This document shows positions 28,188 through 57,453 of a stretch of 64,000 bases of DNA, piece by piece. The DNA is from Candidatus Eiseniibacteriota bacterium. GTDB lineage: Bacteria > Eisenbacteria > RBG-16-71-46 > CAIMUX01 > VGJL01. Numbering within the stretch: position 1 is the first letter of the stretch; each line of letters opens with the position of its first letter. Location: assembly GCA_041946735.1 (NCBI GenBank), contig JBHGAY010000003.1, forward strand, positions 96,001-160,000, written 5' to 3'. The position numbers were made by a program, and so were the translations under genes. Under the pieces are notes generated by a model. That model worked only from the letters and a program-made list of their open reading frames with translations, did not search any database and was not told where the DNA came from.

Positions 28188-28772
28188 ATGGATGTGACCG
28201 CGATCCTCACCCGGGTGGGCGGGGGAGATCGACAGGCGCTCGACGAGCTCTTCCCGCTCGTCTACCGCGAGCTCCGCTCCCTCGCCCGCCTCTACGTGGC
28301 CCGCGAGCGGGCCGGCCACACCCTGCAGCCGACCGCGCTCACCCATGAGGCGTATCTCCGGCTGATCGGGCAGGTGGATCTCTCGTGGGACTGCCGGGCC
28401 CATTTCTTCGCGGCCGCGGCGCAGGCCATGCGCCGCATCCTGGTCGAGCATGCCCGCGCCCGCAGTCGCAAGAAGCGTGGAGGGGGGATGGAGCAAGTCT
28501 CGCTGATCGACATTCCCGCCTTCGCCCCGATCAGCCGCCTGGACCTGCTCGCTCTCGATGAGGCGCTCGAACGTCTCGCCGCGGTGGATCCACGCAAGGA
28601 GCGGGTGGTCGAGCTCCTCTACTTCGGAGGGTTGACCGCGGCCGAGGCGGCCGCGGTGCTCGGCGTCACCTCCCGGACGGTCGAGCGGGACTGGAGCTAC
28701 GCGCGGCTCTGGTTGCTCCGCGAGATGGAGCAGGGGAGGCGGGCCGCCGCCCAACGCGAGGCAGATCCTTGA
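28188..28772 (+). CDS. ECF sigma factor, kinase-associated type (TIGR02999-like)
   Basis: AGGAGG ribosome-binding site; LFPLVYRELRSLA, HTLQPTALTHEAYLRL, HFFAAAAQAMRRILVEHAR, KRGGG, VELLYFGGLT, SRTVERDW. Confidence 0.92.
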   Translation: MDVTAILTRVGGGDRQALDELFPLVYRELRSLARLYVARERAGHTLQPTALTHEAYLRLIGQVDLSWDCRAHFFAAAAQAMRRILVEHARARSRKKRGGGMEQVSLIDIPAFAPISRLDLLALDEALERLAAVDPRKERVVELLYFGGLTAAEAAAVLGVTSRTVERDWSYARLWLLREMEQGRRAAAQREADP

Positions 28773-31700: not shown

Positions 31701-32128
31701 GCGAGGCGGGCAACTGGGAGCAGGGGGAGGTTCTCCTGCGCCGCTCGCTTCTGCTGCGCCGGGAGCTGGACGATCGTCCCGGCATCGCGGAGGCGCTCGA
31801 ATCGCTGGCCGAAGTGGCGGCGGCGATCGGCGAGCCTCTGCGCGCCGCACGGCTCGCCGGAGCTGCGGAGGCGGCCGGAGGCGGTCCGGCATGGAGTGCC
31901 GCCGGCAAAGACGCGAGCGGCCAGCCCGCTCGATCCGGCGCGCTCGCGGGATGGCTCGCGAGGGCGGAGAACGAGATCGGGTCCGAGGCGTTTGAGGCCG
32001 CCCGCCTCATCGGGCGGACGATGACATTGGAACAGGCGATCGCGTATGTCCAGCGCGGCGTGGCAGCCGCACCTTCGGCAAGCAGGAGAGTGAAGCGCCA
32101 AGCCAGGAAGAAAGACGGCCCTCGCTGA
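28769..32128 (+). CDS. Cytoplasmic Ser/Thr protein kinase fused to a STAND-like ATPase and TPR repeats
   Basis: TTGA overlap with the sigma gene; GRGGMG, VALK, HRDLKPSN, DFGLA, GTPGYMGPE; FVGR..E, GPGGCGKT, LLLLDGCE, GMPLALELAA, LSVFRGG; TPR-like NNLG/NLG repeats; no transmembrane helix seen. Confidence 0.9.
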   Translation: MTGPELSSEEILEQALALDPARRLAFLERACGKNRERFDDLASLLAIHDRFPELLQRPGDRVDPASPLPSTIGGYRVLREIGRGGMGVVVLAEDERLHRLVALKLLPDPLARDAAARARFEREAQLLAAMNHPNIATIYSLEQDEEQNLRFLAMEFLEGDSLAERLAGGPLPLARSLAIARQVARALEAAHEKGIVHRDLKPSNVIVGKDGRVKVLDFGLARSLRREVTDADESGTVMGTPGYMGPEQFSRSDVDPRTDIWSFGCLLFECLSGAPAFGGRTPSEAMRLTVSASPDWSRLPPSTPPRVRDLLRRCLEKGLDARLPNIRLARRELEEEMAERSILRRRPPPATVRGAASAGNVPHLLDRFVGRAREQREIGRLLRRCRLVTVTGPGGCGKTRLAQQVARARASTFRDGVWLADLSAAGDTEQAAARIASALRLRDRAMEHPLFDSLLEWIGPREMLLLLDGCERSGEVVRELLERCPRLKVLATALGPLGIRGEAVLRLGMLLDPELPDRSTDLAPLLASPSVQLFVDRWGHPLTSENASAVLEICRLAEGMPLALELAAAAAQLLPVADLAQRLTSRSPVPGWEGRTGWIDRAQSLLDPIDRETFQRLSVFRGGWSLDDAEAVCSGEGLAPWDLLDRIARLRDRSLIEPDDEGTRATGQARWRMLEAIRRFAAEQLPAAESQRLRILHRDHFVALSERLETELTGPAQRQAVSRLEAEYENLRAALDESLDPQAQASEIALRIAGSLGRFLLLQGRWTEGRTWIARALEAARTSPWDGHHPRLGRDATQAAPPASAFAKALHWEANLAERQGDLEAARRASEESLAIWRARGEEKNVARLLNNLANLASRQGNAERAERLYAEALAIHERGDDRLDMAHIWNNLGALHAGRGDFAKARSCFERSVDLKRMLGDRAGVAAGLQNLGALAGIQRDFEAARSFLREAMAVREETGSGEAVAVVSYNLGQLECEAGNWEQGEVLLRRSLLLRRELDDRPGIAEALESLAEVAAAIGEPLRAARLAGAAEAAGGGPAWSAAGKDASGQPARSGALAGWLARAENEIGSEAFEAARLIGRTMTLEQAIAYVQRGVAAAPSASRRVKRQARKKDGPR

Positions 32129-35536: not shown

Positions 35537-37534
35537 CTATACCTGCAGGTGACGGCTGCCCGGCCCGGTCAGGAACTCCAGGGGGCCGAGGTACTCGCTA
35601 CGCGGGTAGACATGGAAGCGTGCTCGGTCTTCCGCGTCCTCGTGGATCAGAATCCGCAGCCGGCCGCGCTTGAGCTTGCTCCATCGAATGCCGTCGACGG
35701 TCTCGCGAGGAAGGAGCTGGCGTGCGGCGACCGGCATCGATTCATAGTAGCGAAGCGCCCGGACGATGCTCTCCACCTTGATGACCGTCTCGATCCCTTC
35801 TTCCCGGAAGTGCGTGGCGAAGCGGCCCACGTTCTCGGGGTCGGCGCTTCCGAGCGGGACGCCGGGATCGGAGGGACGTTGGGGGTCGCGGATGAATGAC
35901 CAGGAGACCGGCGCCGTTCCCTCGATCTCCTCCATCGCGGCCGCTTTCGCCGCCGCTGCGACCGCCGCCCGCTCCCGCGCCGCGGCGCGCGCTGCCGTCG
36001 CTGCCGCCACTGCCGCCGCACGCTCCCGCTCCTCCTCCTCGGCTTCCACCTCCTCCGGCGTCTTCGGTGGAGCGGGACGCGCCGCGCCGGCGCCTCCCTC
36101 CGCGATCTGCTCGAGCGCGGCTTCCCGCATCGCGACCGCGATCTCATGGGCATGCGGGAAGACGAATTCACTGCACATCCGGCGCAGGTCGTCCTTTTGC
36201 GCATCGCTCATCTCTTCCAGCCGGATGAGGTAGCGCGCAGCCGCGTCCCGGATGCGGCCCGCGCTTGCCATGAGCGGCTCGGGACACCGGGCGGCATCGG
36301 GCGAGGAGAGATCGCCGTATGGCGCGGGGCCCGCCTCGAGGATCTCGTCGATGGGCGTCGACTCGGCGACGAGCCAGGGGGCGATCCGGCGCGCGAGGAG
36401 CGACCGCGCCCTCGCTGCTGCGGGCGGCACCGGGACGCGATGCAACTGGCGCGGTCCATGGATAAGCCGATCGACGAGCTGCGAGGCCCAGGGAGCGATC
36501 GAGCCGCGCGCGTCGATCCCTCCGGAGACGAGCAGCAGTCCGCGCAGCACGAGGAACCAGAATTCCGGCTCCCAAAGCATCGGAAGGACGATCGGTTCCC
36601 AGTCCTTTTCGTCCTTCAGCACGTCCCGTTCCACCCGATCCGGCCCCACCTGAGCGTAGCTGGCGTCGAGCTCGCGAAACCGGAGGGTCAGGAGAGTGAC
36701 CAGGAAGCGAGTGTGCGGGTCTTGGCGCTTCTCGAGGACGTCCGTGGCTTCACCGAGAAGCACCCCCGCCGTCATGCGGGCCCTCTGGTAGAACGCGATC
36801 GACTCGCGACCCGCTTTCTCGAGCCGTCGATCGAGATCGGCGAGCTTGTCCCGCTCTTCCCGCACCCGTTGAGCGAGCAGGTCCCGCGACTTGCCAGCCG
36901 GCCGGCAAAGGGAATCGAGGAGACCGAAGTCCGGCTTCCCCTCGAGATCGAGGATCTCATCGTCGTAGGGGCTCGGATGGAAGATCGCCAGGCGCCAGTC
37001 GTCCGGGTGGGTCTTGAAGTACTCGGATACGAACTGGAACATCGCCGCCTGATGCGGATGTTTTCGCATTTCGGACGTCGCCAGATCGCCGATGCTCTCG
37101 CGGACGGCGGAAGCCAACTTCTCACGAAGGATGTCCCAGAGCCCCGGCTCCTCGTAGAGCCGCGTCAACTCCTTCTTCCCTGGCAACGAGCGGAAGACGT
37201 CCCGGATCTGCTTGTACAGGTAAAGCCAACCCAGCGTCGCTTCGAGCGGATCGACACCGGCGCGCCGAGCCTCCTCGGGAAGGTCCTGGAATGTTTCGAG
37301 CGCCGCCAGACAACGCCGCGAGAGGAGCCATTCCACGGACAGCTCCTCCGTGTAGTCGACCAGCAGGCGTCCCTTGCGCATGATTTCCTGATGCTTGCGG
37401 CTCGAGTGGAAGAGCTCGACATTGCGGAGGGCGGAGAAGTAGGCATCGACGCATTCGACGACGGCGACCGGGTCCTGCTGAAGCAGGGACGGCCAGATTC
37501 GGGGAGGCGGAAATTGGAATCTGTCTTTGCGCAT
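35537..37534 (-). CDS. Hypothetical helical protein with Ala/Glu-rich linker and possible RelE-like C-terminal domain
   Basis: 665-aa ORF with protein-like composition, starting 24 bp after the TonB receptor stop; ends WSKLKRGRLRILIHEDAEDRARFHVYPRSEY. Confidence 0.7.
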   Translation of the reverse strand: MRKDRFQFPPPRIWPSLLQQDPVAVVECVDAYFSALRNVELFHSSRKHQEIMRKGRLLVDYTEELSVEWLLSRRCLAALETFQDLPEEARRAGVDPLEATLGWLYLYKQIRDVFRSLPGKKELTRLYEEPGLWDILREKLASAVRESIGDLATSEMRKHPHQAAMFQFVSEYFKTHPDDWRLAIFHPSPYDDEILDLEGKPDFGLLDSLCRPAGKSRDLLAQRVREERDKLADLDRRLEKAGRESIAFYQRARMTAGVLLGEATDVLEKRQDPHTRFLVTLLTLRFRELDASYAQVGPDRVERDVLKDEKDWEPIVLPMLWEPEFWFLVLRGLLLVSGGIDARGSIAPWASQLVDRLIHGPRQLHRVPVPPAAARARSLLARRIAPWLVAESTPIDEILEAGPAPYGDLSSPDAARCPEPLMASAGRIRDAAARYLIRLEEMSDAQKDDLRRMCSEFVFPHAHEIAVAMREAALEQIAEGGAGAARPAPPKTPEEVEAEEEERERAAAVAAATAARAAARERAAVAAAAKAAAMEEIEGTAPVSWSFIRDPQRPSDPGVPLGSADPENVGRFATHFREEGIETVIKVESIVRALRYYESMPVAARQLLPRETVDGIRWSKLKRGRLRILIHEDAEDRARFHVYPRSEYLGPLEFLTGPGSRHLQV

Positions 37535-37557: not shown

Positions 37558-39990
37558 TCAGTACCGGTACGCCACCGTCACTCCGATCCGCCTCGGCGGG
37601 CCGAGATAGGCCTGCTCGCCTCCGCGGTACTCGTAGGCGGAGATCACGTAGCGGCGGTCCAGAAGGTTCTTCGCCCAGAGGTAGACCTCGGCCGTCCTTC
37701 CGGAGATCCCGACCCTTCCGCCGACGAGCTGGCGCGCTGCGCTCCTGTAGAGATTCATATGCGACATGTAGTACGGATCGATGTACTGATAGTCGGCCGC
37801 GACGATCGCCTTGAGGTCACGCCCTAGCAGGCGCGCCGGCATCAAGTACTTCGCGGAGATCGCGGTCGTGAAGCGAGGCGTGAACTGGAGGTCGTTGCCG
37901 GCGTAGTCGTACACGACATCGATGCCGTCCTTGGTCTCGTGGAACTCGAACTCCTCGAACTTCGCCTCGAGCAACCCGAGGTTTCCGGAAAGCGTCAGTC
38001 CGGCGAGTGGAACGGCGTTCACCTCCATCTCGAGCCCCTTGCTGGTAGTCCTTCCCGCGTTCGTGATCGTCTGGAGCGGGCTCGACAGGTCGCCGACGGT
38101 CAAGACCTGCTGTTGTCGCCAGTCGATGTAGAAGGCATTCGCGTTCAGCCGGAGGGTGTTCTCGAGGAAGGACGACTTCCAGCCGACCTCGTAGTTCCAC
38201 GCGAACTCCGGGCCGTAGTACGCGATCGGCTTGTCCGTGCTGTTGAAATCGCCGCCATGCGTTCCCCGGGAAGCCGATGCGTAGACCATGTCCGTTTCGT
38301 CAAGGCGGTAGGAAAGCGCGAACCTGGGTGTCACGAAGTCGAAGTCCTTGGTCTGCTTGCGGCGGCTCACGCCGTCGAAGGGTGGCGGAGCCGGCTCTCC
38401 GTTATACAGATAGCGCGTCTCGTTGTCGATCTCGATCGTCTGTCTCTCGATGCGAGCGCCTGAGGTGAATTCGAGTCTCTCGAAGAGCGTGTACGTGCCC
38501 TGGGCGAATCCCGCCAGCCCCTGCGTCGTCAGGTCGCCGGTCGTCGCCTGGTAGATCGGCCAGATCGGCACGTGATTCGCGCGCGCCCACATCTCCCCGA
38601 GGATCGCGCTGAAATCCTGGTCCTCGAGATCGTTCGAGTAGAAGGCGCCCGCCATCCACCGGAGGCGTGAAGGCCTAGCTGGGAACTGGCATCGAACCTC
38701 CTGCGACCAGCCTCGGTAGGGCGTATTCGAGAGGAGACCGATCAAATCGAGCGGGGAGAAGTCGGCATCGTAAAGCCAGTTCATCCCTGACGTATTCTGA
38801 TAGGCGGTCGTCGACAGGAGGTCGATGCCGGCCCCCTTGTACCTTAGCTTCAACGAGGCGATCGAGTTGTGCTTGTGGATCTTCGAGTCGACGTCCGTCG
38901 CGAACCGGTACGGGTCCTCCATTGCAGCGGCCGGGTCGGTCGCGAACGGCCAGATGCTTTCCTCGATCTGCTCATTGTTGGCGAAGATCTCGGCGCTGAA
39001 GGACTCCGACGGGAAGAAGCGGAGGTCGAGGGTCCCGCCACGCCCCTTGCTCCAGCCGGCGTTCTTATCCAGGTATGTGTTGGTGTAGTAGCCGTCCCGG
39101 TTCGCATCGTAGACGGAAGCGCGAAGGAAGAGCCGGTGCCGGACCAACGGCGCGGAGACGCCGAGCGAAACCTTGGAAGCGTCGTAGTTCCCGTACTCCA
39201 TGCCCACAGAGAGTCGCGTCCGATCGCTCGGCTTCTGCGAGACGATGTTGACCACGCCGGCCAGTGAGTTCCGACCGTACAGCATGCCTTGCGGGCCTCG
39301 AACGATCTCGATGCGGTCGACGTCGTTCAAGTACATCGGATTCAGGCCGTAGCCATAGATCGGCACGCCGTCGTAGTAGAAGAGGCTCGTCGCCTCGAAC
39401 GGGGTCGCGGGCACAATCCCGCGGATGCTGACGAAGTCGGTCATGTGCGATCCAGTGTCCGCAATGATCGAGTTTGGCGAGAGGCCGGAGACGTCGGTGC
39501 GGTCGCGGATCGACAAGTCGCCGATCTTCTCCGCGGTGATCGCGCTGACAGCGACCGGAACCGTCTGCAGGTTCTGCTGGACCCTTGCTGCCGTGACGAC
39601 GATCTCCTGGAGGTTCACTGGCACGCGGTTCAAGGTGAAGTCGATTGCCAGGGTATCGGACCCCGCAGGAACCGTCATTTCCCGCCGGACCGGCTCGGCT
39701 CCGATCATTGAGACGATGACGAGATAATCCCCAGCGCGGATATTCGCGATGAAGTAGTGCCCCGATGCGTCGGTCAGAACTCCCATTGCAGTCCCATCGA
39801 GATACACCGACGCTCCCTGGGCCGGCTCTCCCTTCGAGTCCGTCACTCTGCCGCCAACCCCTGCGCCCCACGCGGGTGCCGCCGCGTACAGGACAAGGAC
39901 CAGGAGAAAAGCGGCAGTCACAGCCCGGATCAGAACGCGCACCCCAGCCCCGGTCTTGGGATCCATGGCGACTCTGAGCTTCGGCTTCAT
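37558..39990 (-). CDS. TonB-dependent receptor with N-terminal carboxypeptidase-regulatory-like domain
   Basis: GAGGAGGAG, then a TGATG overlap with the kinase stop; signal ending AWG; GRVTD..GEP..GASV; EIVVTA TonB box; DRIEIVRGPQG.LYGRN..AGVVNI plug; NLLDRRY..PRRIGVTVAYRY. Confidence 0.92.
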   Translation of the reverse strand: MKPKLRVAMDPKTGAGVRVLIRAVTAAFLLVLVLYAAAPAWGAGVGGRVTDSKGEPAQGASVYLDGTAMGVLTDASGHYFIANIRAGDYLVIVSMIGAEPVRREMTVPAGSDTLAIDFTLNRVPVNLQEIVVTAARVQQNLQTVPVAVSAITAEKIGDLSIRDRTDVSGLSPNSIIADTGSHMTDFVSIRGIVPATPFEATSLFYYDGVPIYGYGLNPMYLNDVDRIEIVRGPQGMLYGRNSLAGVVNIVSQKPSDRTRLSVGMEYGNYDASKVSLGVSAPLVRHRLFLRASVYDANRDGYYTNTYLDKNAGWSKGRGGTLDLRFFPSESFSAEIFANNEQIEESIWPFATDPAAAMEDPYRFATDVDSKIHKHNSIASLKLRYKGAGIDLLSTTAYQNTSGMNWLYDADFSPLDLIGLLSNTPYRGWSQEVRCQFPARPSRLRWMAGAFYSNDLEDQDFSAILGEMWARANHVPIWPIYQATTGDLTTQGLAGFAQGTYTLFERLEFTSGARIERQTIEIDNETRYLYNGEPAPPPFDGVSRRKQTKDFDFVTPRFALSYRLDETDMVYASASRGTHGGDFNSTDKPIAYYGPEFAWNYEVGWKSSFLENTLRLNANAFYIDWRQQQVLTVGDLSSPLQTITNAGRTTSKGLEMEVNAVPLAGLTLSGNLGLLEAKFEEFEFHETKDGIDVVYDYAGNDLQFTPRFTTAISAKYLMPARLLGRDLKAIVAADYQYIDPYYMSHMNLYRSAARQLVGGRVGISGRTAEVYLWAKNLLDRRYVISAYEYRGGEQAYLGPPRRIGVTVAYRY

Positions 39991-42900
39991 CAGCTCCTCC
40001 TCACCTGGCGATCTCCGTCTTGATCGCTCCTCCCTCCCGCCGTGCGATCGAGAGGAGCGAATCGGCAACTGCCGGCCGCGGTGAACGAGCCCTTGCTGGG
40101 TGTGATGCTGGTGTTTCCCGGCCTGTTCCCCCAGCACTTCACCTCGAATCGTCCGTCGACTCCCTCGAATCGTCCGGTCCCCTCGACCGCAGTGGAGAAC
40201 GCCCGGCTCTCGTAATGGTCTGGCGTCATCAGCGTCATCTCGCCTGTATACGCCAGCCGGATCTGCGCTCCATCCCTGGCGGTGCAGGTTCCCACGCCCT
40301 CGGAGAAGTGGCCGGTCGCCATGTTGTAGCGATGGCTTATCTCGACGGTGCACGGACCGAAGTACGTCGCGTGCCCCTCGAACCTGCCGGTCGAGATGAG
40401 CTCGTCCTCCGTCACAGGCACGCTCGAGAACGCTCCCTCCCCATACACGAACCACGGCAGGGTCAGCGAGGCGAGCCACTCCCGCCCGCGCGAAAGGAAT
40501 GCCACCGATTCGTCACGGGCTCCGATCCGCGCGAGATGATGCCCGAGAGAGATGAGCACCTGCGCCTCGAGCTGCGGATCCCCCGCGTCCTTTGAAACAT
40601 CGAGCGCCTCATCGAGCGCCGCGCGTTCGCGGTCCGGGTGCTGCAACAGGTCGAGCCGCTCCGCCTTGCGCAGCAGGATCTCGATCCGGCGGGCTCCGGA
40701 AAGGAGCCCGCGACAGCCCAAGGCCATCTCGATCAGATCGAGCGCCCTCTCGCTCGAGAAGCTCTGCTCCAGACGCCTCAGCGCGGGCTCCAGATGCGGC
40801 AAGGCTCGTTCGCCGCGCCCTCCCTTCAGGAAGTGCTCGCAGACCGCAGTCACGTCTTCGGAACCGCGGATCTCCAGCGCTTCCCCGATCGATGCGTGGT
40901 ACGCCTGTCGCAACGGTTGCGAGAGACTGCCGTAGAGCGCCTCCTGCACCTGATGGTGATCGAAGACGTAGTTCGAGCCCGAAGAGCGAACGAGCCGGTG
41001 ATGCCGCTCGATCTGCGACAACAGCTTCAGGACGGCGAGCGTGGGGAGTCCCGTCGCCTCTGCGACGAGCAACGGGTCGAACGAGAACCCGCAGCAACTC
41101 GCCGTGTCCAGCAGGTCCCGCTCCTGCTCGGAGAGGCTCGATACCCGTGCTTTCACCAGGTCGAGCACCGAGGAGGGGATCTCGATCTTCTGGATCTTCT
41201 TCGAGATCACCCAGGTGCCGTCAGGAAGCATCCTCAGGTACTGCCCCTCCCGCAGGTCCCGTACAATCTCGAACGCGAAGAACGGGTTGCCGTCCGACTT
41301 CGCCGCGATCTTGTACGCCAGCTCCTCCGCGAGCGATTCCGAGCGGAACGCGTCGACCAGCAGCCTCGTCAGGTCCTTCGGCCCGAGCCGGGAGAGGGCC
41401 ATCGACCGGGCGTGTTCGAGCCGCTCGATGCTTGCACGCCAGCTCTCCGGGACTCCTGGACGGGACGTGCCGATCAGAAGGACCCGATCCTCCGGGATGG
41501 CGAGCGCGAGCGACGCGAACATCGCGCGCCCCTCCTCGGGAGCGAAGTGCAGGTCCTCGATCAAGACCACCGTCGGCCGCTCGGCTGCGAGCGCCCGGGT
41601 CGCCTGGACGAACGCCGTCTGCATGGAGTCCTTGGTCAGCGGCTCCTTCCCCTCGGGTGTCGGCTCCCCCTTGAGGAGAGCGGCGAAGGCAGACGCCAGC
41701 GAGGGCGTGAGCGAGAGGTAGCCTCGGATCCTCTCTTCCAGCCCCTCGGATCCGAACTGCTCCCGGTAGGCCGTGGACCATGCGCCCGAAACCGTTGCCG
41801 CCCCGCCGGGCGGATAGCTGCCAAAGAGGAAGTTCAAGTCCTCGCCGGCGGAGTCCAGCTCTCCGATGAACTCGTCGATCAGCCGGGTCTTCCCGATCCC
41901 CGCCTCTCCTTCGACTAGGAGGACCTGGCCGTGGGCGGCCTTGACGTCCGCGAAGATGACGCGCAGTCGCGCGAGATCATCCTCCCGGCCATAGATCGCC
42001 GTCTCCCGCGGCATCCGGACCCGCCGGAGCGGTCGCTTTGTCTCGATCCGGATCGCCTGCGCCCGGGCGTTCCACCATTCGCTCTTGTCGCCGTCCTCGA
42101 GGACGTGGATCAAATCGGTCGCCGACGCGAAGCGATCCTCCTTGTCCTTCGCGATCAGCTTCTGTACGACCTCCTCGAAGAAAGGAGAAAGTTGCGGATT
42201 CAACTGACCGACCCGGCGCGGCGGCTCTTCGAGCACCCGTCTCAGGACGACGCGAGGATCCCCGTCTCGATATGGATGTCTTGCCGTCGAAAGCTCGTAG
42301 AGGATGATGCCGAGGGCGTAGAGGTCCGCTCGGCCGTCGATGTCCGGACCGTCCGAGCGGAACTGCTCGGGCGCGGCGTACTCAACCGTCCCGATGAAGC
42401 TCCCCGTCTGGCTGAGGCGCGCGGTCTGTTCCGTAGGCCGTGCCACTCCGAGGTCCATCACCTTGACCGCGTGGTCCGCCGTGATGAGGATGTTGTCCGG
42501 TTTCAAATCCCGATGCACGACTCCGGCGGCATGGATCGCCGCGAGCCCCCTCGCAATCTCACGGCCGAGGTGACGGCACAGTTCCTCCGGAACGCGATCC
42601 AGCTCTTGGAGGAGAGACCGCAGCGTCTGCCCCTCGACGTATTCCATCACCAGGAAGTTGAGCTGACGACCCTCGTGCACAATCGCATCGCAATCGATGC
42701 AGCGGACGACGTTGGGATGGCGGACCGACTTGCCGATCTCCGCCTCGCGCAGGAAGCGCTTGAAGAAGCCGGCCTTCTCGAGCAGGTGGGGATGGATGAT
42801 TTTCAGAGCGACAGTCGTGCCTGCGGCGAGCCCGGGCGCTTTGCCAACGACCTCGGCCCGGTAGACCTTTCCCATCCCGCCGGAGCCCAACTCATCACCG

Positions 42901-43142
42901 ATGAGGTAGGGGCCGATTCGAGCCTGCGGATTCAGGGTCCCGATGGTGTGAGTGATCTTGTCACCGGTGTCCTCCGAGCCGGAGAAGGGCTCGCTATCGA
43001 GCGCGAGGAGATCTTCGACCTCCGCCCGCAAGGAGGCGTTTGTACCGCACGCCGCGCGCAGGGCCGCGCGCCGATCCTCCTCGGGAAGATCGGCCACGCG
43101 CAGGAAGATCTCCTTCACGCGCTCGTAGTGGCCCGGGATCAC
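39990..43142 (-). CDS. Cytoplasmic Ser/Thr kinase + AAA/STAND ATPase + short TPR-like region + C-terminal beta-rich 'GTGRF' domain
   Basis: GTGA overlap with the sigma gene; GSGGMG, VALK, HRDLKPDN, DLGVA, GTVEYAAPE; YGRE, GEAGIGKTRL, VLIEDLH, SDGNPFF; the last ~140 aa resemble the proteins at 44074 and 44736. Confidence 0.88.
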   Translation of the reverse strand: MIPGHYERVKEIFLRVADLPEEDRRAALRAACGTNASLRAEVEDLLALDSEPFSGSEDTGDKITHTIGTLNPQARIGPYLIGDELGSGGMGKVYRAEVVGKAPGLAAGTTVALKIIHPHLLEKAGFFKRFLREAEIGKSVRHPNVVRCIDCDAIVHEGRQLNFLVMEYVEGQTLRSLLQELDRVPEELCRHLGREIARGLAAIHAAGVVHRDLKPDNILITADHAVKVMDLGVARPTEQTARLSQTGSFIGTVEYAAPEQFRSDGPDIDGRADLYALGIILYELSTARHPYRDGDPRVVLRRVLEEPPRRVGQLNPQLSPFFEEVVQKLIAKDKEDRFASATDLIHVLEDGDKSEWWNARAQAIRIETKRPLRRVRMPRETAIYGREDDLARLRVIFADVKAAHGQVLLVEGEAGIGKTRLIDEFIGELDSAGEDLNFLFGSYPPGGAATVSGAWSTAYREQFGSEGLEERIRGYLSLTPSLASAFAALLKGEPTPEGKEPLTKDSMQTAFVQATRALAAERPTVVLIEDLHFAPEEGRAMFASLALAIPEDRVLLIGTSRPGVPESWRASIERLEHARSMALSRLGPKDLTRLLVDAFRSESLAEELAYKIAAKSDGNPFFAFEIVRDLREGQYLRMLPDGTWVISKKIQKIEIPSSVLDLVKARVSSLSEQERDLLDTASCCGFSFDPLLVAEATGLPTLAVLKLLSQIERHHRLVRSSGSNYVFDHHQVQEALYGSLSQPLRQAYHASIGEALEIRGSEDVTAVCEHFLKGGRGERALPHLEPALRRLEQSFSSERALDLIEMALGCRGLLSGARRIEILLRKAERLDLLQHPDRERAALDEALDVSKDAGDPQLEAQVLISLGHHLARIGARDESVAFLSRGREWLASLTLPWFVYGEGAFSSVPVTEDELISTGRFEGHATYFGPCTVEISHRYNMATGHFSEGVGTCTARDGAQIRLAYTGEMTLMTPDHYESRAFSTAVEGTGRFEGVDGRFEVKCWGNRPGNTSITPSKGSFTAAGSCRFAPLDRTAGGRSDQDGDRQVRRS

Positions 43143-43735
43143 GCCTGCGGCCCTCCCGGCGGTCCACGCAGCTCACGGCCAAGCCACGCGGCCGCGATCC
43201 GCCAGTCGCCACGGACCGTTCGCTCCGAGACGCCGAGGACCGTGGCGATCTCCTTCTCGCGCAGTCCGGCGAAGACCCGCATCTCGACGATCTGAGCCGC
43301 GCGTGGATCGACCTCCGCGAAGCGCGAGAGGATACGGTCCAACTCCAGGATCTCGAGTTCGGATCGCCCGCCGATCTGCACGTGCTCATCGAGCGCGATC
43401 TTCTCGCACCCCCCTCCGCGTTTCTCGGCGGCGCGGCGGCGCGCATGCTGGATCAGAACGCGCCGCATCGCCGACGCGACGATGCCGAAGAACTGCGCGC
43501 GGCTCTCCCACTCGATGGGGACGTCGCCGACCAAGCGCAGATACGCCTCGTTGACCAGGGCGGTGGGCTGGAGCGTATGGCTCTGGCGTTCGTGGCTCAT
43601 CAGGCCGACCGCGATGCGGTGCAGCTCGCGGTAGGTGGCCTGGAACAGCTTCGCGGTCGCTACGGAAGGATCCTCTTGCTCCTTCGCGATAAGGCGAAGG
43701 AGTCGCGTGACTTCGCCCTCGATGGGCTCGTCCAT
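43139..43735 (-). CDS. ECF sigma factor, kinase-associated type (TIGR02999-like)
   Basis: EVTRLL, YRELHRIA, HTLQPTALVNEAYLRL, FFGIVASAMRRVLIQHAR, KRGGG, VEMRVFAGL, SERTVRGDW. Confidence 0.92.
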   Translation of the reverse strand: MDEPIEGEVTRLLRLIAKEQEDPSVATAKLFQATYRELHRIAVGLMSHERQSHTLQPTALVNEAYLRLVGDVPIEWESRAQFFGIVASAMRRVLIQHARRRAAEKRGGGCEKIALDEHVQIGGRSELEILELDRILSRFAEVDPRAAQIVEMRVFAGLREKEIATVLGVSERTVRGDWRIAAAWLGRELRGPPGGPQA

Positions 43736-43931
43736 GCGCCACCCCCGGAGTGAAGCGGCATGCCGGGCACAGGCACGCGCAGACCGTAGCTACTTTGCGG
43801 CAAATACGGTACGGCCCCGGGAAGCGTCCTGCAACCGGAGAATGGCGGTCCGGGAGAATCGCAGCTGGCGATGACGAAAGGCCGGCGGGACGGCAGCCCG
43901 GGTCGGGACGCTTGCGCCTCGACGGGCTTTT

Positions 43932-43953
43932 TGCCGGTTTCGGACGCGGAATG
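43932..43953 (+). promoter_or_regulatory. Candidate ECF-dependent promoter element upstream of the two secreted GTGRF proteins
   Basis: TGCCGGTTTCGGACGCGGAATG; 15 of 22 positions match the minus-strand element at 28115-28136. Confidence 0.4.
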
Positions 43954-44073
43954 CACACATAGGGGAGCAGTCCCGGCGGTTCGAGAGGATGCGTCACGAA
44001 TCCCGGACGCGAGGGGGGCCGGCCCGGACCGGCGCCCGTATGCCAAACGGATGACTCAAGAAGGGGGACAGAA

Positions 44074-44628
44074 ATGAACATTCTCATCTCCGCCCTGATG
44101 GCCGTTCTGCTGGGCTTCACCGGAAGCTCCGCCGACCCCGGTGCGGTCAGCACGTCGCCCGACAGGAGCGACCAGGACACGATGTTCCGAGAACCGGTGG
44201 GTGGGTATTTCCATGGCAGAATCGACGGGATCGCAGTGACCGTGGGCTATTGCGTACCGGATCAGGTACTGGACATCGACTTCGACGGCGTCGGCGTCGT
44301 CTCCTTCCTCGGGCGCTGCACGATGAGCGCAAACAACTGCTCGGACTGGACCGATCCCGAGCTGCCTTTCGAGGGCGGCATTGAGGGTGACGGCACGGTG
44401 GTCGCAGCCAACGGGGATGAGCTCTACATGACGGTAGCCGGCAGGTACTACGTCGGTAGCTTGCCGCCGACCACGATGACGATCACCGGCACGTACACCG
44501 TCACGGGCGGCACGGGCAGATTCTCCGATGCAACCGGCTCCGGGCAGATCTACGGAGAGCAGGAACTCTTGGATCTATACGGTCATCACGAGACCTGGTT
44601 CAGCTTCGACGGGACTTTCCGTCCTTAG
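44074..44628 (+). CDS. Secreted beta-rich protein with GGTGRF motif (dirigent/allene oxide cyclase-like barrel inferred)
   Basis: AAGGGGG ribosome-binding site; signal peptide; G..SFLG.C, AANGDEL, TVTGGTGRFSDATGSG. Confidence 0.8.
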   Translation: MNILISALMAVLLGFTGSSADPGAVSTSPDRSDQDTMFREPVGGYFHGRIDGIAVTVGYCVPDQVLDIDFDGVGVVSFLGRCTMSANNCSDWTDPELPFEGGIEGDGTVVAANGDELYMTVAGRYYVGSLPPTTMTITGTYTVTGGTGRFSDATGSGQIYGEQELLDLYGHHETWFSFDGTFRP

Positions 44629-44644
44629 GCGAAGCGAAGAGACG

Positions 44645-44676
44645 CTGGGAGCCGGCAACTGTCGTCCGGCTCCCAG
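44645..44676 (+). terminator. Intergenic hairpin between the two GTGRF genes (terminator, attenuator or stabiliser)
   Basis: CTGGGAGCCGG (44645-44655) pairs with CCGGCTCCCAG (44666-44676). Confidence 0.45.
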
Positions 44677-44735
44677 TTGGATGGAAAGCCTGTTGGCGCT
44701 CGGGGCTCGGCCCCGAGATCTGAAGGAGGAATCCC

Positions 44736-45221
44736 ATGACAGGGCGGGCCATGTTCTTCGGACTTCTCGTGGCGCTGGTCGCCGCGCTCGCTCCGATCAC
44801 AGCGCAGTCGCAGGAGATGGTCTACTTCAAGGGGCACGCAGAGGGGACGATCGATCACGCGCCAAGCGTCGCCTGCGGGACCGGGTTCCTCGAGGCGACC
44901 ACGCAGGCCTCGGGGAACGTTAGCCACATGGGTCGCGTCGACATCGAGGGCCTCCACTGCCTGAACCCGAGCAGCGGCGAGGTGAGCAATGGCGATTTCA
45001 CGATCGCCACCAAGGGTGGAGACATGCTGTACGCCACCTACACCGGGCAGGCTTTCCCAGACCAGACGGTCCGTCTGGAAGGAACGTGGACCGGCGGCAC
45101 GGGACGTTTTGCCGGGGCAACCGGGCAGTTCGTCGTGACCGCGACCAAGACGGTCGGCGACATCTGGCACTCCCAGATCGTCATGGATGCGGTCGGGACG
45201 GTGACGATCATCGACGACTGA
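44736..45221 (+). CDS. Secreted beta-rich protein with GGTGRF motif (paralog of 44074)
   Basis: AAGGAGG ribosome-binding site; signal peptide; GNVSHMG, TKGGDML..TYTG, WTGGTGRFAGATGQF. Confidence 0.82.
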   Translation: MTGRAMFFGLLVALVAALAPITAQSQEMVYFKGHAEGTIDHAPSVACGTGFLEATTQASGNVSHMGRVDIEGLHCLNPSSGEVSNGDFTIATKGGDMLYATYTGQAFPDQTVRLEGTWTGGTGRFAGATGQFVVTATKTVGDIWHSQIVMDAVGTVTIIDD

Positions 45222-45526: not shown

Positions 45527-46354
45527 ATGCGTGTCCTTCTGATCCTTCTCGCCCTTCTACTCCTACTCATCGCTGGCACCGCCGCTGCCCGGGACGTCGC
45601 GAAGAACGACCAGGTCATCGATGGGATCGTGACCCCGCACGCGAACCAGATCGACGCCGAGAACCGTGGAGCCGATCTGGTCGTCTCGATCATCGCCGGC
45701 ACCTTCACCGACCTCGGTCCGGCCTACCGGAGCGCGCTTCTGGCGATCGGTGAGGGCCCGGTCGACCTGATCTACGACCCGATGGGCAACTGGCCGAGCC
45801 TGAGCGGCTACACGACGGTGCTCGTCACCTGCTCCGACCTCTGGTGGAGCGGCTACTTCCTCGCGGCCGACGAGCAGCAGCTCGCCGCCCACCTTGACAC
45901 CAACGGTTGCGTGACCTTGATCGGTCAGGATTATCTCTACCAGCGGGGCGGCTACGCAGGCTTCCCCGCGAACTACCTCGGCGTCGCGGGCGCGAACGAA
46001 GACGCCAACTACAACGACAGCGGCGAGCTTTCGTGGCAGGGAACGACGAGCGGCCCGCTGGAAGGCGTCTCCGGCTCGATGTACCCGTGCTTCGCCGCGA
46101 ACCCCTGGTTCACCGACGAGATCTATCCCGCCTCCCAAGGACTCGTGACCTGGGCCTCGCCGTTGTACGGCCCGGCCGAGGGCGGGACGCAGCTGAGCTT
46201 TGCCGTCTTTTCGGCAGTCGAGTTCGCCTGCGGCGACCCCGCCACCCTGGAGACGGTCATGGTGAGTCTCCTCTGCGGAGGCATACCCCCTCCCCCGCCT
46301 CCTGTGGCGACGCAGCACGAGAGCTGGGGGAGCCTGAAGCACCAGTACCGCTGA
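45527..46354 (+). CDS. Secreted hypothetical protein with C-terminal SWG tail
   Basis: Signal MRVLLILLALLLLLIAGTAAA; L.AHLD.NG...LIGQDYL segment; poly-Pro linker, then VATQHESWGSLKHQYR*. Confidence 0.8.
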   Translation: MRVLLILLALLLLLIAGTAAARDVAKNDQVIDGIVTPHANQIDAENRGADLVVSIIAGTFTDLGPAYRSALLAIGEGPVDLIYDPMGNWPSLSGYTTVLVTCSDLWWSGYFLAADEQQLAAHLDTNGCVTLIGQDYLYQRGGYAGFPANYLGVAGANEDANYNDSGELSWQGTTSGPLEGVSGSMYPCFAANPWFTDEIYPASQGLVTWASPLYGPAEGGTQLSFAVFSAVEFACGDPATLETVMVSLLCGGIPPPPPPVATQHESWGSLKHQYR

Positions 46355-46447: not shown

Positions 46448-46524
46448 CAATTCCGTAAGACCCGGTTCACGACACCGGCATGAGATGGACGAGTGAGCAT
46501 GATCGGCGTACGCTTCCCGCCGGC

Positions 46525-47511
46525 ATGGAATCGATCCCGAATGTTTCGGCCGCGAGTCGCGCAAATCCGGATGCGGCGGGAATCACCGTTGAGGGCTTGA
46601 CCAAGACCTACCGTTCGGGAAAGGTGCGAGCGCTGGACGCGGTGTCGCTGCGCGTGCGTCCCGGAGAGGTCCTCGGGGTGATCGGCCCCAACGGCGCCGG
46701 CAAGACGACGCTCATGGGCTGCATGCTCGGCTTCTTGCGCCCAGACGCGGGAACCGTGGCGATCGATGGACACCCGCCTGACGACCTCTCCGTCCGTGGT
46801 GCCACGGGCTATCTGCCCGAGAGGCTCACGCTCGACCGCTGGATGACCGGTCTCGGCTACCTTCGCTATCAGCACGCGCTCGCGCGTCTGCCGGCGGAGA
46901 CGCGGGATCAGGACGCGCGTGCCTGGCTGGCTAGGGTCGGACTCGATCCGGCTGCCGGCGACCGGACGGTCCGCAGGTACTCGCAGGGGATGCTGCAACG
47001 CCTCGGCCTCGCGCAGGCGCTCCTCGGCTGCCCGCGATTCCTCTTCCTGGACGAGCCGACCTCCGGCATGGACCCGGAGGGCGTCGTCCTGTTCCGGCGG
47101 ATCGTGGGAGATCTCAAGGGCTCCGGTGTCACGGTGATCCTGAACTCGCACCAACTCGATCAGGTGGAGCGCGTCTGCGATCGCGTCGCCTTCGTTCAGC
47201 GGGGGAAGGTGGAATCGATCGACACCCTGACGGCGGGGGCTCAGCTTGAGCGTCTCCTGCGCGTGCGATTCGCCGCCGGGTCGTTCCCATCTTCCGACGC
47301 CCTGGCGCGGTGCGCGCGGGAATCGGGCGCGGAGCTGGTCGAGGTCGCACCCGGCGAAGGTCGATTCCAGGTCTCCGGCGACGAGGGCGCGGTGAGGCTC
47401 CTGCGCGCGCTCGTCGGAGCGGGACTGGCGGTCGTGGAAGCGAACGCCGACCAGGGCCGGCTCGAACGGCTTTTCACGGCTGCGGCTCCGCCGGCCGGAG
47501 ACGCGCGATGA
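46525..47511 (+). CDS. ABC transporter ATP-binding protein (ABC-2 type)
   Basis: GPNGAGKTT, YSQGMLQRLGLA, FLDEPTSGMDP, NSHQL; start may be 46480. Confidence 0.92.
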   Translation: MESIPNVSAASRANPDAAGITVEGLTKTYRSGKVRALDAVSLRVRPGEVLGVIGPNGAGKTTLMGCMLGFLRPDAGTVAIDGHPPDDLSVRGATGYLPERLTLDRWMTGLGYLRYQHALARLPAETRDQDARAWLARVGLDPAAGDRTVRRYSQGMLQRLGLAQALLGCPRFLFLDEPTSGMDPEGVVLFRRIVGDLKGSGVTVILNSHQLDQVERVCDRVAFVQRGKVESIDTLTAGAQLERLLRVRFAAGSFPSSDALARCARESGAELVEVAPGEGRFQVSGDEGAVRLLRALVGAGLAVVEANADQGRLERLFTAAAPPAGDAR

Positions 47512-48209
47512 ACGGGACGCTCATCACAGCCTTCCTTCGCCAGCGCCTGCATAGCCGCGTCCGCATGGCCTTGGCCATCTTCTTCTTCGCGACGAAGCCG
47601 CTCATCGCCGCAATCGCGCCCCGCATCGGGTTCGATCCATTCGACTGGGCCTTCGCCCTGATCGTCGGCGCGGGCATGATCGGGCAGGACGTGGCATCGG
47701 GCGTTCTCGCGGGGATCCTCGCTCGTCCGGTCCGGCGCTCCGAGTACGTGCTGAGCCGCGGCGCGGCGACGGCGATCGGCGCCGGGCTCCTCTGTCTGGC
47801 GCATTGCGCTGCCGGTTTCGCGGCGCTGGCCCTGCGTGGGGCCCCGGTCGACCTGGCCATGGCCGCTTCGCGAACGGCCGCCGCGCTCTTCACCGTCATC
47901 GGCGCCTCCGCCGTCCTGCTCTTCTTCTCCAGCGCCATGAACGCGCTCGGCGACCTCGCGGTCTACCTCATCGCTTTCCTGCTGACCCAGGTCGTGCAGA
48001 CGGTCGGGTCGATGCAGTCGATCGGCTGGCTCCAGCGGACCGGCCTCGAGCTCGGGGGATTCGTCCAACCCATCCTCTACCCCGCGCAGATCGCCGGCCC
48101 GGCGGCGTCGCCGTTCGCGGTCGTCTCGTACCTGTCGACGATCACCCTCTGCATCGTGCTCGCGATCCTCCTCACGAATCGGAAGGAGCTGTCCTATGCC
48201 GCCTCGTGA
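47508..48209 (+). CDS. ABC-2 type transporter permease
   Basis: ATGA overlap with the ATPase; about 6 transmembrane segments; DVASGVL..ILARPVRRSEYVLSR. Confidence 0.85.
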   Translation: MNGTLITAFLRQRLHSRVRMALAIFFFATKPLIAAIAPRIGFDPFDWAFALIVGAGMIGQDVASGVLAGILARPVRRSEYVLSRGAATAIGAGLLCLAHCAAGFAALALRGAPVDLAMAASRTAAALFTVIGASAVLLFFSSAMNALGDLAVYLIAFLLTQVVQTVGSMQSIGWLQRTGLELGGFVQPILYPAQIAGPAASPFAVVSYLSTITLCIVLAILLTNRKELSYAAS

Positions 48210-48795
48210 GACGAAGGCCAGCGGGTCGGGAGCAAAGGAAGAGTCGAGCGGCCGCGTAACAGTGCGCGGCTCGACGCGCGCGACGCCGCGCTGGCTTTTC
48301 GTGCTCGCGGCGGTCCTCCTGATCGCCCGCGTGGCGACAGGGATCCAGGAGCACGCCCAGGCGCGCCCACCAGTCGACCGAGTCGCGTGGGTTCCCATGG
48401 AGCAGGCGGAGGCGCAGGCACAATCCACCGGGAAGGCGATCCTCTACGACTTCTCGGCTGCGTCGTCTCGGCCGTGCCGCAGGATGGCGAGGGAGGTCTT
48501 CACCGACTCGACGATGGCGAGAATCATTTCCACGCAGTATGTGCCGGTGCAGGTCATCGATCGCTCACGTGAAGACGGACGGAATTCCGCGGCCATCGAC
48601 TCTCTGCAAGCCGTCTACCGCGTGCGCTCCTTCCCCACGCTGGTCGTGTTTCACCCGCAGACCGGCGAGCACGAAACCGCCGAGGGCTACGAGAGCCGGG
48701 GCAAGACGGCGCGGTTCCTGCAGGATCCGGCCGGCAAGCTCCACATCCGTCCGTTCCTGCCACAAGGGACGCCCCCGGCGGACTCGGGCCGGTGA
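48196..48795 (+). CDS. Membrane-anchored or exported thioredoxin-like protein with SxxC motif
   Basis: N-terminal hydrophobic helix; VAW..AEAQA...GKAILYDFSAASSRPCRRM.REVF, YRVRSFPTLV. Confidence 0.8.
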   Translation: MPPRETKASGSGAKEESSGRVTVRGSTRATPRWLFVLAAVLLIARVATGIQEHAQARPPVDRVAWVPMEQAEAQAQSTGKAILYDFSAASSRPCRRMAREVFTDSTMARIISTQYVPVQVIDRSREDGRNSAAIDSLQAVYRVRSFPTLVVFHPQTGEHETAEGYESRGKTARFLQDPAGKLHIRPFLPQGTPPADSGR

Positions 48796-50173: not shown

Positions 50174-50791
50174 CTAGGCGCGCTTCTTCCTGGCGCGCAT
50201 CCGCGCTGCGGAGCCTACGAGCCCGAGCCCGAGAAGCAGGAGAGATGTCGGTTCCGGAACCGGCCCGACCATGTCTTGACCCTGTCCCGAGCCCGCATAG
50301 TCGAACCAGCCGGCCGTCGAGCTCTGGCTCTGGGCGGTGGTCAGGTAGCCATCTACCTGGCTGCCGAGGTCGCCTGAGTACTGGAAGGCTCCTGCTGCGC
50401 GATCGGCCTCGTCATCCGCGGTCAGTTCCCAGAGCGCGATCTGGAGGGCGGCGGCATCGGTCGACGTCGATGTCTGGCCGTAGACGTTGTAGAGCCAGGC
50501 GATCTGCTGTCCGTTCCGAGGCATCTCCGTGGTGCTGCGGACGTTCACGTCGTAACAGAACGGCATCGACCCGAGGAAGTGATCGAGATCGACGCAGTAG
50601 ATCTCCGGCAGGGAGGTGCCGTTCAGCTCGGCGTCGAAGCTCCCCGCATAAAGGTTCAGATCCTGACCGAGGTAGTTGACCCAGACGGCCTGGTAATGGT
50701 GCATCCCCTGGATACACAACGGGATGGCGCCGGCGATCTGGGGAGCGGCAATCAGGGCCAGGAGGATGAGGATGGTGATCCGGGTGCGCAT
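50174..50791 (-). CDS. PEP-CTERM protein with thioester-domain (TED)-like motifs
   Basis: AAGGAGG ribosome-binding site; signal ending AGA; YCVDL, LQIALWEL, GQDMV; VPEPTSLLLLGLGLVGSAARMRARKKRA. Confidence 0.88.
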   Translation of the reverse strand: MRTRITILILLALIAAPQIAGAIPLCIQGMHHYQAVWVNYLGQDLNLYAGSFDAELNGTSLPEIYCVDLDHFLGSMPFCYDVNVRSTTEMPRNGQQIAWLYNVYGQTSTSTDAAALQIALWELTADDEADRAAGAFQYSGDLGSQVDGYLTTAQSQSSTAGWFDYAGSGQGQDMVGPVPEPTSLLLLGLGLVGSAARMRARKKRA

Positions 50792-56900: not shown

Positions 56901-57453
56901 TGGAGACGCAATGACCGAGTCGTGCGCCGTCCTGCCCCCCTTCCCGGGACCAGGCGATGCCACCGTTGACTCCCCCGGAGGAGCCGAGGTAGAGCCACGC
57001 CGCGCCCTCGCTGTCGTTGCCGTTGGAGTAGTACGGCGCGCCGATGATTACGTCGTCGTAGCCGTCGCCGTTTACGTCACCCGCGGTGGAAACCGAGTAG
57101 CCGAACTGCGACAGCCCGGCTCCGAAGGCCGACCAATCGGCGGAGTCTCCGGGGCCGTTGGGGCCGCCTTGGTAGACGCGCGCCCGGCCGTTGTTGTTGC
57201 CGAACAGCGCGTCGGCGAGCGGCTCTCCGACGATGACGTCCGCATACCCATCGCCGTTCACGTCGCCTGCGGTCGAGACGGACCAGCCAAGGTTCGCGCC
57301 GTTCTGGGATCCGTCGAGCGTCCACAGAGGCGTGGCTGCGATCCCGGCGAGCGATGCGGACGGCGCCAGGATGGCGGCGGACAGAAGCGCCGCGAACGCG
57401 GCGATCCATGCGGCCCCGGAGCGCGTGTCAAAGGCGAACAGCTTGCGTTGCAT
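53995..57453 (-). CDS. Secreted FG-GAP repeat protein with FlgD/T9SS-like C-terminal domain (paralog of 6376)
   Basis: GAGAGG ribosome-binding site; signal ending SLA; about 14 AGDVNGDGY repeats; VFPNPL..VHDVSGRRVATL..PGVYFARL..RLILAR. Confidence 0.88.
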   Translation of the reverse strand: MQRKLFAFDTRSGAAWIAAFAALLSAAILAPSASLAGIAATPLWTLDGSQNGANLGWSVSTAGDVNGDGYADVIVGEPLADALFGNNNGRARVYQGGPNGPGDSADWSAFGAGLSQFGYSVSTAGDVNGDGYDDVIIGAPYYSNGNDSEGAAWLYLGSSGGVNGGIAWSREGGQDGARLGHCVSTAGDVNGDGYDDVIVASPFYTSNLTEQGRVQIFLGGPDSLASSPHRTIYGSGAGDAFGWRVATAGDVNGDGYDDVLVSAVYYEGLLGPTNEGAVYCYHGSAAGVDDTADWLRSGVQADEYFGSGLAFAGDTNGDGFSDILIGAGAYDNGQVGEGHVVLYLGSATGLAGTPHREWESNQSDTYLGDAVATAGDVNADGFADVILGEPNLDAGQEDEGSVLAYCGSPTGPGSSIFAIDSDEAFAGLGWAVATAGDVDGDGRSDILVGAPFADAGGSNRGRVQIFAAFADHYGNADFTAENNQAGAGMGHAVGMADVNGDGYSDLLGAAWFYDAGETNEGRAYCWLGGYEGISNPADWYRDGNQTNAFYGHVIASAGDVNGDGYDDVAVTAPGYDDVLANEGKVWVHHGSATGLSADPSWSARGQQADSDFGWSAASAGDVNGDGYGDLIIGKPDHDNPQTDEGAALLYLGSAGGLQSAPVIGWEGNQDGANAGFSVACAGDVNGDGYSDVISGAPLYDTAQGNEGVVFVFFGSPGDLDPSPSQTIRRGFPGMKFGISIDSASDVNGDGYSDIVVGASGYTNGQDQEGAVYVYHGGPAGVDGLHDFAFEPNIAGAYLGEKVAGIGDINADGYSDIAAAAPHYGPNFEGRIYVFAGSPSGIVSTPFAILNGGDGRFGAAIAGYGDIDSDGFPDLVAGAPDATNGSEGEGLLALLYGNRTGASDFGPGAARRLHMRQPDDGSRLALLGRSEEAGEMRIRMLGRSAFGRGRVRASYQFSPLGETWSGPTLTTNWVDSGEPIPGQGSRVGINEIVSGLAGDTPYHWRVRFESESPYFSPTPWLSLAGNGPVDADFRTAGAPTGVEATDVTAGAGALDLRFERVFPNPLRDDTRLRFYIPSPGAVRLTVHDVSGRRVATLLDGHVEAGTHEIAWAGGAGTAGLSGSGGGRRLSPGVYFARLQAGDRVVHARLILAR

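Follow-up and report, generated by a model that had tools for sequence, protein, structure and literature searches.

A predicted dirigent-type barrel in place of a TPR sensor array in a kinase linked to an ECF43-like sigma factor

What does a Ser/Thr kinase do with a C-terminal domain whose relatives are mostly secreted proteins? This question was raised by a locus in the genome of a Candidatus Eiseniibacteriota bacterium (GenBank assembly GCA_041946735.1; 4.9 Mb in 72 contigs; G000). The stretch of DNA that was analysed, called the window here, comprises 64,000 nucleotides of contig JBHGAY010000003.1, and all positions refer to it. On its minus strand, a gene for a sigma factor of the extracytoplasmic function (ECF) type (P0002) is followed by a kinase gene (P0001, 1050 amino acids; 39990..43142) and a gene for a TonB-dependent receptor. 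The kinase was found to consist of a Ser/Thr kinase domain, an AAA_16 ATPase domain, a short remnant of tetratricopeptide repeats (TPRs) and a barrel. Two secreted barrel proteins are encoded on the plus strand beyond a 338-bp spacer, namely barrel A (P0003, 184 amino acids; 44074..44628) and barrel B (P0004, 161 amino acids; 44736..45221). The gene map agreed with the divergent arrangement given in a preliminary description of this DNA. The signal peptides claimed there for both proteins were also recognised, as hydrophobic N-terminal leaders.

The kinase reading frame was open across 1050 codons. Residues 1-47 (43002..43142) form a helical motif ahead of the kinase domain. This motif was 64% identical to the start of the protein encoded next to the ECF sigma gene in G005, a genome of the same family and another genus (E 5e-13), and motifs akin to it were recognised by reading in two other proteins, P0229 and P0262. 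The Hanks-type kinase domain was located at residues 81-342 (42117..42902; Pkinase, PF00069, E 1e-45), in which the catalytic motifs GSGGMGKVY, VALK, HRDLKPDN, DLG and APE could be read. It was followed by a STAND-like ATPase domain at residues 383-557 (41472..41996; AAA_16, PF13191, E 1e-15, 59 bits against a cut-off of 32.6) with GEAGIGKT as its Walker A motif. In the last ~490 residues, no Pfam match was found, nor any TPR match at E up to 0.1. Hydropathy revealed no membrane-like segment in P0001, and the kinase is predicted to be cytoplasmic.

The tail of the kinase was homologous to the secreted proteins. When its last 176 residues were compared with P0004 by BLASTP, 32% identity was obtained over 87 columns (E 2e-7). 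The alignment had been described earlier as gapless; the homology held, and two small gaps were present. A resemblance to P0003 had also been described. It was not significant in the pairwise comparison (E 1.4) and was recovered at the level of the family, where one profile matched P0003, P0004 and the tail. P0003 and P0004 matched each other with E 1e-10. In six-frame searches of the genome, the tail found the P0004 gene (5.6e-5) and then a match at chance level (E 0.45), and P0004 found the P0003 gene (2.5e-6) and the tail (4.6e-5). No further barrel copies were found in the 4.9-Mb genome by these searches and the domain profile. GC at third codon positions (GC3) in the kinase frame was kept at 0.8-0.9 through the tail, and first-position GC fell to the level of P0003 and P0004. 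This meant that the tail is coding sequence in the kinase frame. GC3 fell within the last 28 codons, which encode a low-confidence and probably disordered end (39993..40076, minus strand). A hidden internal start for a separate secreted barrel was ruled out, since neither an ATG with a ribosome site nor a hydrophobic leader was found 5' of the barrel.

Residues 885-1050 were modelled with AlphaFold using a 65-row family alignment. An all-beta barrel was obtained with a mean predicted local distance difference test score (pLDDT) of 86.7, which exceeded 90 over residues 893-1022 (40077..40466, minus strand); the model of P0004 reached 93.6. A barrel of the dirigent or allene oxide cyclase (AOC) type had been proposed earlier from a sequence motif, and the structural comparisons bore this out for both models. 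In Foldseek, the tail and P0004 matched the same structures, namely the dirigent proteins 6ooc, 7ywe/7r5z, 4rev, 6ood and 8th2 and the cyclase PloI4, with a probability of 1.00 to 6ooc, 7ywe, 7r5z and 6ood. VIA-align of the tail gave the highest Z score with 2q03 (14.4; root mean square deviation 1.9, 117 residues), followed by PloI4 (12.1), pyocyanin demethylase (11.8), the dirigent domain of JAC1 (11.4), allene oxide cyclase (11.2) and AtDIR6 (11.2). On these models, the tail, P0003 and P0004 have one common predicted fold, that of the dirigent/AOC type. The same eight-stranded antiparallel barrel is present in dirigent and AOC proteins, PloI4, AbyU, Cyc15 and DUF3224-type proteins (2q03, 2ooj), with only 8-13% sequence identity to the tail. 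A GGTG.F..A.G-like motif was common to the tail family and the dirigent/AOC proteins. Sequence matches were weak, and the family profile gave no better than E 0.09 for a dirigent protein and E 0.29 for allene oxide cyclase. A search of the ESM Atlas with the tail returned unnamed clusters alone, at 0.80, a level that was reached by chance too.

Most fold neighbours of the tail are enzymes or form trimeric scaffolds; cyclases, Diels-Alderases and pyocyanin demethylase are among the relatives, and a trimeric state is described for dirigent proteins and allene oxide cyclase. The barrel might accordingly be a catalytic or oligomerisation module and not an input domain, and oligomerisation would cluster the kinase constitutively. 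The near-invariant Asp of the family is lost from the tail, and no catalytic residues are known for the family. We consider a catalytic or oligomerising role improbable.

The barrels did not fall into a described family. P0003, P0004 and the tail matched no Pfam model at E up to 0.1, and no Pfam or NCBIfam model covering the family was found. When 24 relatives were scanned, nine matched PF03018 (Dirigent), PF06351 (Allene_ox_cyc) or PF18678 (AOC_like), mostly below the cut-offs. P0011 was the one relative above a whole-protein cut-off (Dirigent, 43 bits against 29.1). The barrel family is thus a separate one without a Pfam model above cut-off. It is large: with a five-sequence profile, 4177 cluster representatives were retrieved at E up to 1e-3, of which 636 remained at a limit of 1e-10. 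Among the 150 with the best scores, lengths ranged over 110-502 amino acids, with a single domain or two to three tandem copies; some family members were joined to FG-GAP, beta-propeller, hydrolase or dockerin parts. A hydrophobic leader was present in 123 of 149 representatives by a crude hydropathy test, suggesting that the family is mostly extracytoplasmic. The tail was a clear member (best phmmer E 5e-12) and kept the GxGRF core and the invariant residues G929, G988, G990, R991 and G997.

The junction between kinase and barrel lies at about 40470, and its support was uneven. An independent set of contigs from the likely source run contained all 113 31-mers that were sampled from 39900-41000. 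Four further studies had runs in which sequence flanking the junction was 100% identical to the window. None of the sequencing runs listed was an RNA run. Contigs from other studies did not complete this support: none from three of them spanned 40470-40511, with 100% matches on both sides. In one run, a contig ended exactly at 40469 (depth 11), and the next one started at 40716 (depth 6.6). Contigs of two other studies bridged 40716 (40512-40767 and 40580-40730), not 40470. In another public assembly, a 99%-identical kinase was cut at residue 813 (~40704) by the end of a 2.7-kb contig, and its last residue differed. The kinase gene contains a perfect 9-bp GC hairpin at 40689-40711 (GCGGGCTCC-ggaaa-GGAGCCCGC), and contigs of two other runs and of the other public assembly broke within a few bases of it (~40704-40716). 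A GC-rich run was located at 40479-40498. Because the breaks adjoin the hairpin and the GC-rich run at a low contig depth of 2-11x, technical drop-out is sufficient to cause them.

The missing contigs, the break exactly at 40469, the differing last residue of the cut kinase and the division of the genome assembly into 72 contigs would also fit an assembly chimera or a mixed-strain artefact. In that case, the kinase and the barrel-receptor segment would not be contiguous in one cell, or would be so only in a minority variant. We judged this to be very unlikely. The 31-mers of the likely source run were complete, position 40716 was bridged in two other studies, and technical drop-out suffices for the breaks. 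The genome holds no second copy of the junction DNA that could mislead an assembler, and a random join would seldom preserve the frame and coincide with a domain boundary. Repeat-mediated misassembly was ruled out, as the junction DNA is unique in the genome and local repeats are 20 nt or shorter. The fusion of the barrel to the kinase is probably real.

What the barrel replaced was seen by comparison with G005. There, the orthologs of barrels A and B lie between an ECF sigma gene on their 5' side and the gene of the kinase P0006; the ortholog of barrel A carries a lipobox. P0006 was 71% identical to P0001 without gaps over residues 75-879. Past the end of this homology, P0006 extends by another ~520 residues, which are occupied by TPR repeats (TPR_MalT, with its match starting at residue 852, TPR_12 and others), and no barrel was found in it. 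P0001 keeps the first ~1.5 repeats (about residues 790-890; 40473..40775, minus strand), recognised by their homology to the first part of the P0006 region with MalT-like TPRs, which confirmed the short TPR-like stretch noted earlier. A 16-residue link follows, and the barrel starts with its first conserved residue, P896, at most about 16 residues from the fusion point. Because the 71%-identical kinase has TPRs at this place, the fusion is, as judged from the alignment, a lineage-specific domain replacement in which the barrel occupies the place of the TPR sensor array. A transfer of the TPR half to another place in the genome was ruled out, the best tblastn match being a 30%-identical paralog and the open reading frame (ORF) after barrel B being unrelated.

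P0006 differed from P0001 in its position downstream of barrel B, not downstream of the sigma gene, and in having no N-terminal motif. The motif is carried in G005 by the protein encoded downstream of its ECF sigma gene (L010, contig C29, 6511-8228, minus strand), together with an AAA_16 domain. This protein was 52% identical to P0001 over 492 amino acids and had lost the kinase catalytic core and all TPRs. Its gene looks like a decayed duplicate, with the intact kinase located across the barrel genes.

The adjacency of barrels to sigma and kinase genes was conserved in the phylum. The barrel was found by profile search in three of 206 genomes, and in all three it was located beside an ECF sigma gene and a Hanks kinase gene. 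In G175, the sigma gene comes first. Next is a kinase gene whose product has the same N-terminal motif, a membrane helix and TPRs, and a secreted barrel gene follows directly downstream. The neighbourhood expected in the preliminary description was thus recovered for the ECF and kinase genes. It was not recovered for a TonB receptor, which was absent from the G005 locus, and the same fusion was not found in other genomes. In Armatimonadota, barrels in frames of 156-277 amino acids were present in 6 of 401 genomes, and Pfam searches of 63 stop-to-stop ORFs within ~1.5 kb of the six loci found neither an ECF sigma factor nor a kinase. The linkage is therefore not universal. A WD40-repeat protein adjoins the barrel gene in two of these six loci (L028 of G500 and L029 of G241). 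A scan of genome contigs for barrels returned the G005 contig and one Armatimonadota locus alone, the latter without an ECF or kinase gene beside the barrel, and B-type barrels were not found in the metagenome contig scan. Weak tail matches in G039 and G028 (E 0.005-0.008) proved spurious when the loci were read.

Fusions to kinases were searched among longer proteins matching the profile, of which two out of 103 carried a kinase domain (P0229 and P0201). In this search, 8000 candidates were scored and P0001 itself was not among them, which makes it a weak negative on further fusions. P0229, from a metagenome, consists of a kinase, a membrane helix, a TPR array and a barrel (profile 41 bits, E 4e-5 against 5.8 billion sequences). 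It resembled P0001 in its Hanks kinase, in an N-terminal motif of the same kind and in a C-terminal barrel of the same family. In contrast to P0001, it has a membrane helix and a full TPR array ahead of the barrel, which is predicted to be periplasmic, and it has no AAA_16 domain. P0201 was a chimera of 276 amino acids made of half a kinase and half a barrel. The predicted architecture of P0229 is independent evidence that kinases of this type can carry the barrel at their sensor end. As far as can be read from gene order and domains, the recurrent adjacency of barrel and kinase genes and the two fusions speak for barrel and kinase acting together.

The sigma factor P0002 (198 amino acids; 43139..43735, minus strand) matched PF07638 over 8-190 (E 2e-51) and TIGR02999 with 194.3 bits against a cut-off of 126.15. 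In PMC13147305, the ECF43 group is described as having a QTTA motif with a conserved Thr in place of the acidic DxxD. Both sigma factors were set by eye against this description. The sigma2.2 region of P0002 reads LQPTALV (HTLQPTALVNEAY), with Q..A where other sigmas carry the acidic DxxD, and the G005 sigma reads HTLQTTALVNEAY, which is QTTA itself. For EcfP and EcfK, phosphorylation of the Thr by the neighbouring kinase is given as the activation step (PMC13147305, PMC8999054). EcfP/PknT of Vibrio parahaemolyticus and EcfK/PknS of Xanthomonas citri consist of a PF07638/TIGR02999-type sigma adjoining a Ser/Thr kinase gene, as here. They also have Q-x-T-A with the conserved Thr for DxxD and a kinase N-terminal extension, both as in the present pair (PMC13147305, PMC8999054). 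PknS is presented as a membrane receptor kinase with three periplasmic TPRs (PMC13147305), whereas P0001 has no membrane segment and contains AAA_16 and the barrel instead of the TPRs. What PknT and PknS respond to is described in PMC13147305 and PMC8999054 only in terms of polymyxin stress or contact with amoebae. P0002 appears to be ECF43-like, and we can fairly infer that it would be activated by phosphorylation. This agreed with the earlier suggestion that a kinase-associated ECF factor can be activated in this way.

The gene arrangement pointed to one operon on the minus strand. The stop codon TGA of the sigma gene and the start codon GTG of the kinase gene overlap in the sequence GTGA. 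The TGA of the kinase gene and the ATG of the receptor gene have one base in common, and an AGGAGG ribosome site is located just 5' of that ATG within the kinase end. No terminator-like sites were found among the sigma, kinase and receptor genes. In the divergent spacers of G000 and G005, common blocks of the form CCGGTTTC-N16-C[AG]TA faced the barrels, and blocks of the form CCGGTTGC-N16-17-CGTA faced the sigma gene. In the window, these promoter-like motifs were located at 43934..43961 on the plus strand (CCGGTTTC-N16-CATA) and at 43810..43838 on the minus strand (CCGGTTGC-N17-CGTA). The pattern CCGGTT[TG]C-N16-17-C[AG]TA had 10 sites in the genome, two of which are those described here, and the pattern was derived from these very sites. 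The divergent pair is only a lead to candidate sigma-dependent promoters. The other eight sites were located on contigs C4, C6, C8, C13, C24, C36, C45 and C71.

Based on the above results, we tentatively propose, with slightly less than even confidence, that, in an ECF43 module, the barrel serves a cytoplasmic STAND-type kinase as its input domain, and that the secreted barrels and the receptor are among the outputs of this module. The TPR sensor array would have been cut to ~1.5 repeats, with a complete barrel of the dirigent/AOC fold taking its place. The barrel would have come from the mostly secreted family, of which two other copies lie across the divergent promoter region. In the cytoplasm, it might bind a small hydrophobic molecule, or a partner. 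The bound barrel would control ATPase-driven activation of the kinase, which would phosphorylate the sigma factor at the Thr of the QPTA motif. The sigma factor would then turn on its own operon, including the receptor, and the two secreted barrels.

Several results weigh against the barrel as an input domain. No homolog with a fusion of the P0001 type was found among proteins of 577-1838 amino acids, so the conserved homologs of the fusion that could have been expected did not appear, and the nearest ortholog has TPRs. P0229 is a singleton for which no fused relatives were found. Close relatives of the tail were not found in metagenome or genome contig collections. By phmmer, the tail was no closer to its neighbours than to distant members of the family, with P0004 ranking about fortieth and P0003 near chance. 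At nine of the 29 conserved positions that apply to the tail (the 30th column is the start Met), its residue differed from the family consensus; this is a rough count, in which P0004 and its close relative P0012 also scored as divergent. The 95%-conserved Asp of AANGD was lost (the tail reads ARDGA), Arg stood in place of the usual Cys of HC.N, and the tail lacked the region that would hold the likely partner of this Cys. Such losses would fit relaxed selection and a new role equally well. The missing contig over 40470-40511 belongs to the same side. So does the TonB receptor, which is absent from the G005 locus and is therefore not part of the conserved module; an HlyD efflux-type gene follows the G005 kinase instead.

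An accidental and fairly recent gene fusion without a sensing role would account for much of this. The barrel would be stranded in the cytoplasm, and the kinase would be deregulated or dead. The ancestral order would have been sigma, kinase with TPRs, secreted barrel and receptor, and a deletion would have taken away the larger part of both the TPR array and the barrel signal peptide, along with the stop codon and the spacer. G175 still shows a kinase with TPRs directly followed by a secreted barrel gene. By reading, LASLTL just before the barrel resembles the end of the P0004 leader, LAPITA, and the drop of GC3 in the last 28 codons is as expected of read-through into a former spacer. The fusion was unique in the searches, near-invariant family residues were lost from the tail, the truncated P0201 shows that such accidents occur, and the G005 kinase copy without a catalytic core points to a rearrangement-prone locus. 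The barrel, however, is complete, in frame and joined at a domain boundary, and its predicted fold has high confidence. The tail is not a fresh copy of the neighbouring genes, because it is only ~30% identical to any other member found. The absence of the usual Cys pair of the family suits the cytoplasm, and the allele was at least tolerated, with 100%-identical flanking sequence in the runs of four further studies. We regard an accidental fusion as possible and rather doubtful. Even if the fusion were merely an accident, it would remain a Rosetta-stone hint of cooperation between barrel and kinase.

The proposal of an input domain might be extended to the receptor. Its gene (37558..39990, minus strand) encodes 810 amino acids from the start MKPKL, with CarboxypepD_reg (PF13620), plug (PF07715, E 1e-16) and barrel (PF00593, E 4e-27) domains. 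An ORF at 37558-40479, which overlaps the kinase tail in another frame, was rejected as a high-GC artefact, and the Met of MKPKL was taken as the receptor start. In a two-compartment loop, the secreted barrels would capture a hydrophobic molecule, and the co-transcribed TonB receptor would import it. The barrel of the kinase would detect the molecule inside the cell, and phosphorylation of the sigma factor would amplify the whole system. The barrel family would then be a ligand-binding co-sensor of ECF43-type kinase modules. It would work alongside the TPRs of the kinase as a periplasmic protein of its own (G175) or be joined to them in one chain (P0229), and here a copy would have been brought into the cytoplasm on a STAND-type kinase. 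We regard this wider scheme as unlikely. In cell-surface signalling of the FecA-FecR-FecI type, a TonB receptor is combined with an ECF sigma factor, and here too genes for both are found in one operon. The present locus differs in that no anti-sigma gene was seen, the N-terminus of the receptor is CarboxypepD_reg and not a signalling domain, and the signal would pass through a predicted cytoplasmic kinase.

ECF43 sigma/kinase pairs, STAND kinases and dirigent-type barrels are each already known. In a full-text search combining dirigent, ECF sigma and kinase, no published case was found of such a kinase ending in a dirigent-fold barrel, with secreted paralogs of the barrel encoded beside it. 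A member of the dirigent, AOC or cyclase families fused to a kinase was likewise not found in the full-text literature search. The literature on Eisenbacteria and sigma factors returned only unrelated papers, as judged by title and abstract. For the kinases that activate ECF43 factors, the barrel offers a concrete and expressible candidate for an input component. It was linked to sigma/kinase modules in three lineages of one phylum and fused at the sensor end of a kinase in two unrelated proteins. The analysis also draws attention to a large family, with its 4177 representatives, of predicted dirigent-protein fold.

The kinase has relatives in the same genome, with about 20 paralogs found by tblastn. 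One of them, located 8 kb away at 28769-32128 on the plus strand, is a second kinase-AAA-TPR protein of 1119 amino acids with TPR_12 and TPR_10. Directly 3' of the receptor gene, a helical protein of 665 amino acids is encoded at 35537-37534 on the minus strand, with no Pfam family and, by reading, no leader. On the other side, a gap of ~300 bp after barrel B is followed by a gene for a secreted protein of ~275 amino acids (45527-46354, plus strand), which has the leader MRVLLILLALLLLLIAG and no Pfam family. An ABC transporter pair is located at 46480-48209, followed by a thioredoxin-like protein at 48196-48795. Farther away on the minus strand, a PEP-CTERM protein is encoded at 50174-50791 and an FG-GAP repeat protein of 1310 amino acids at 53995-57927.

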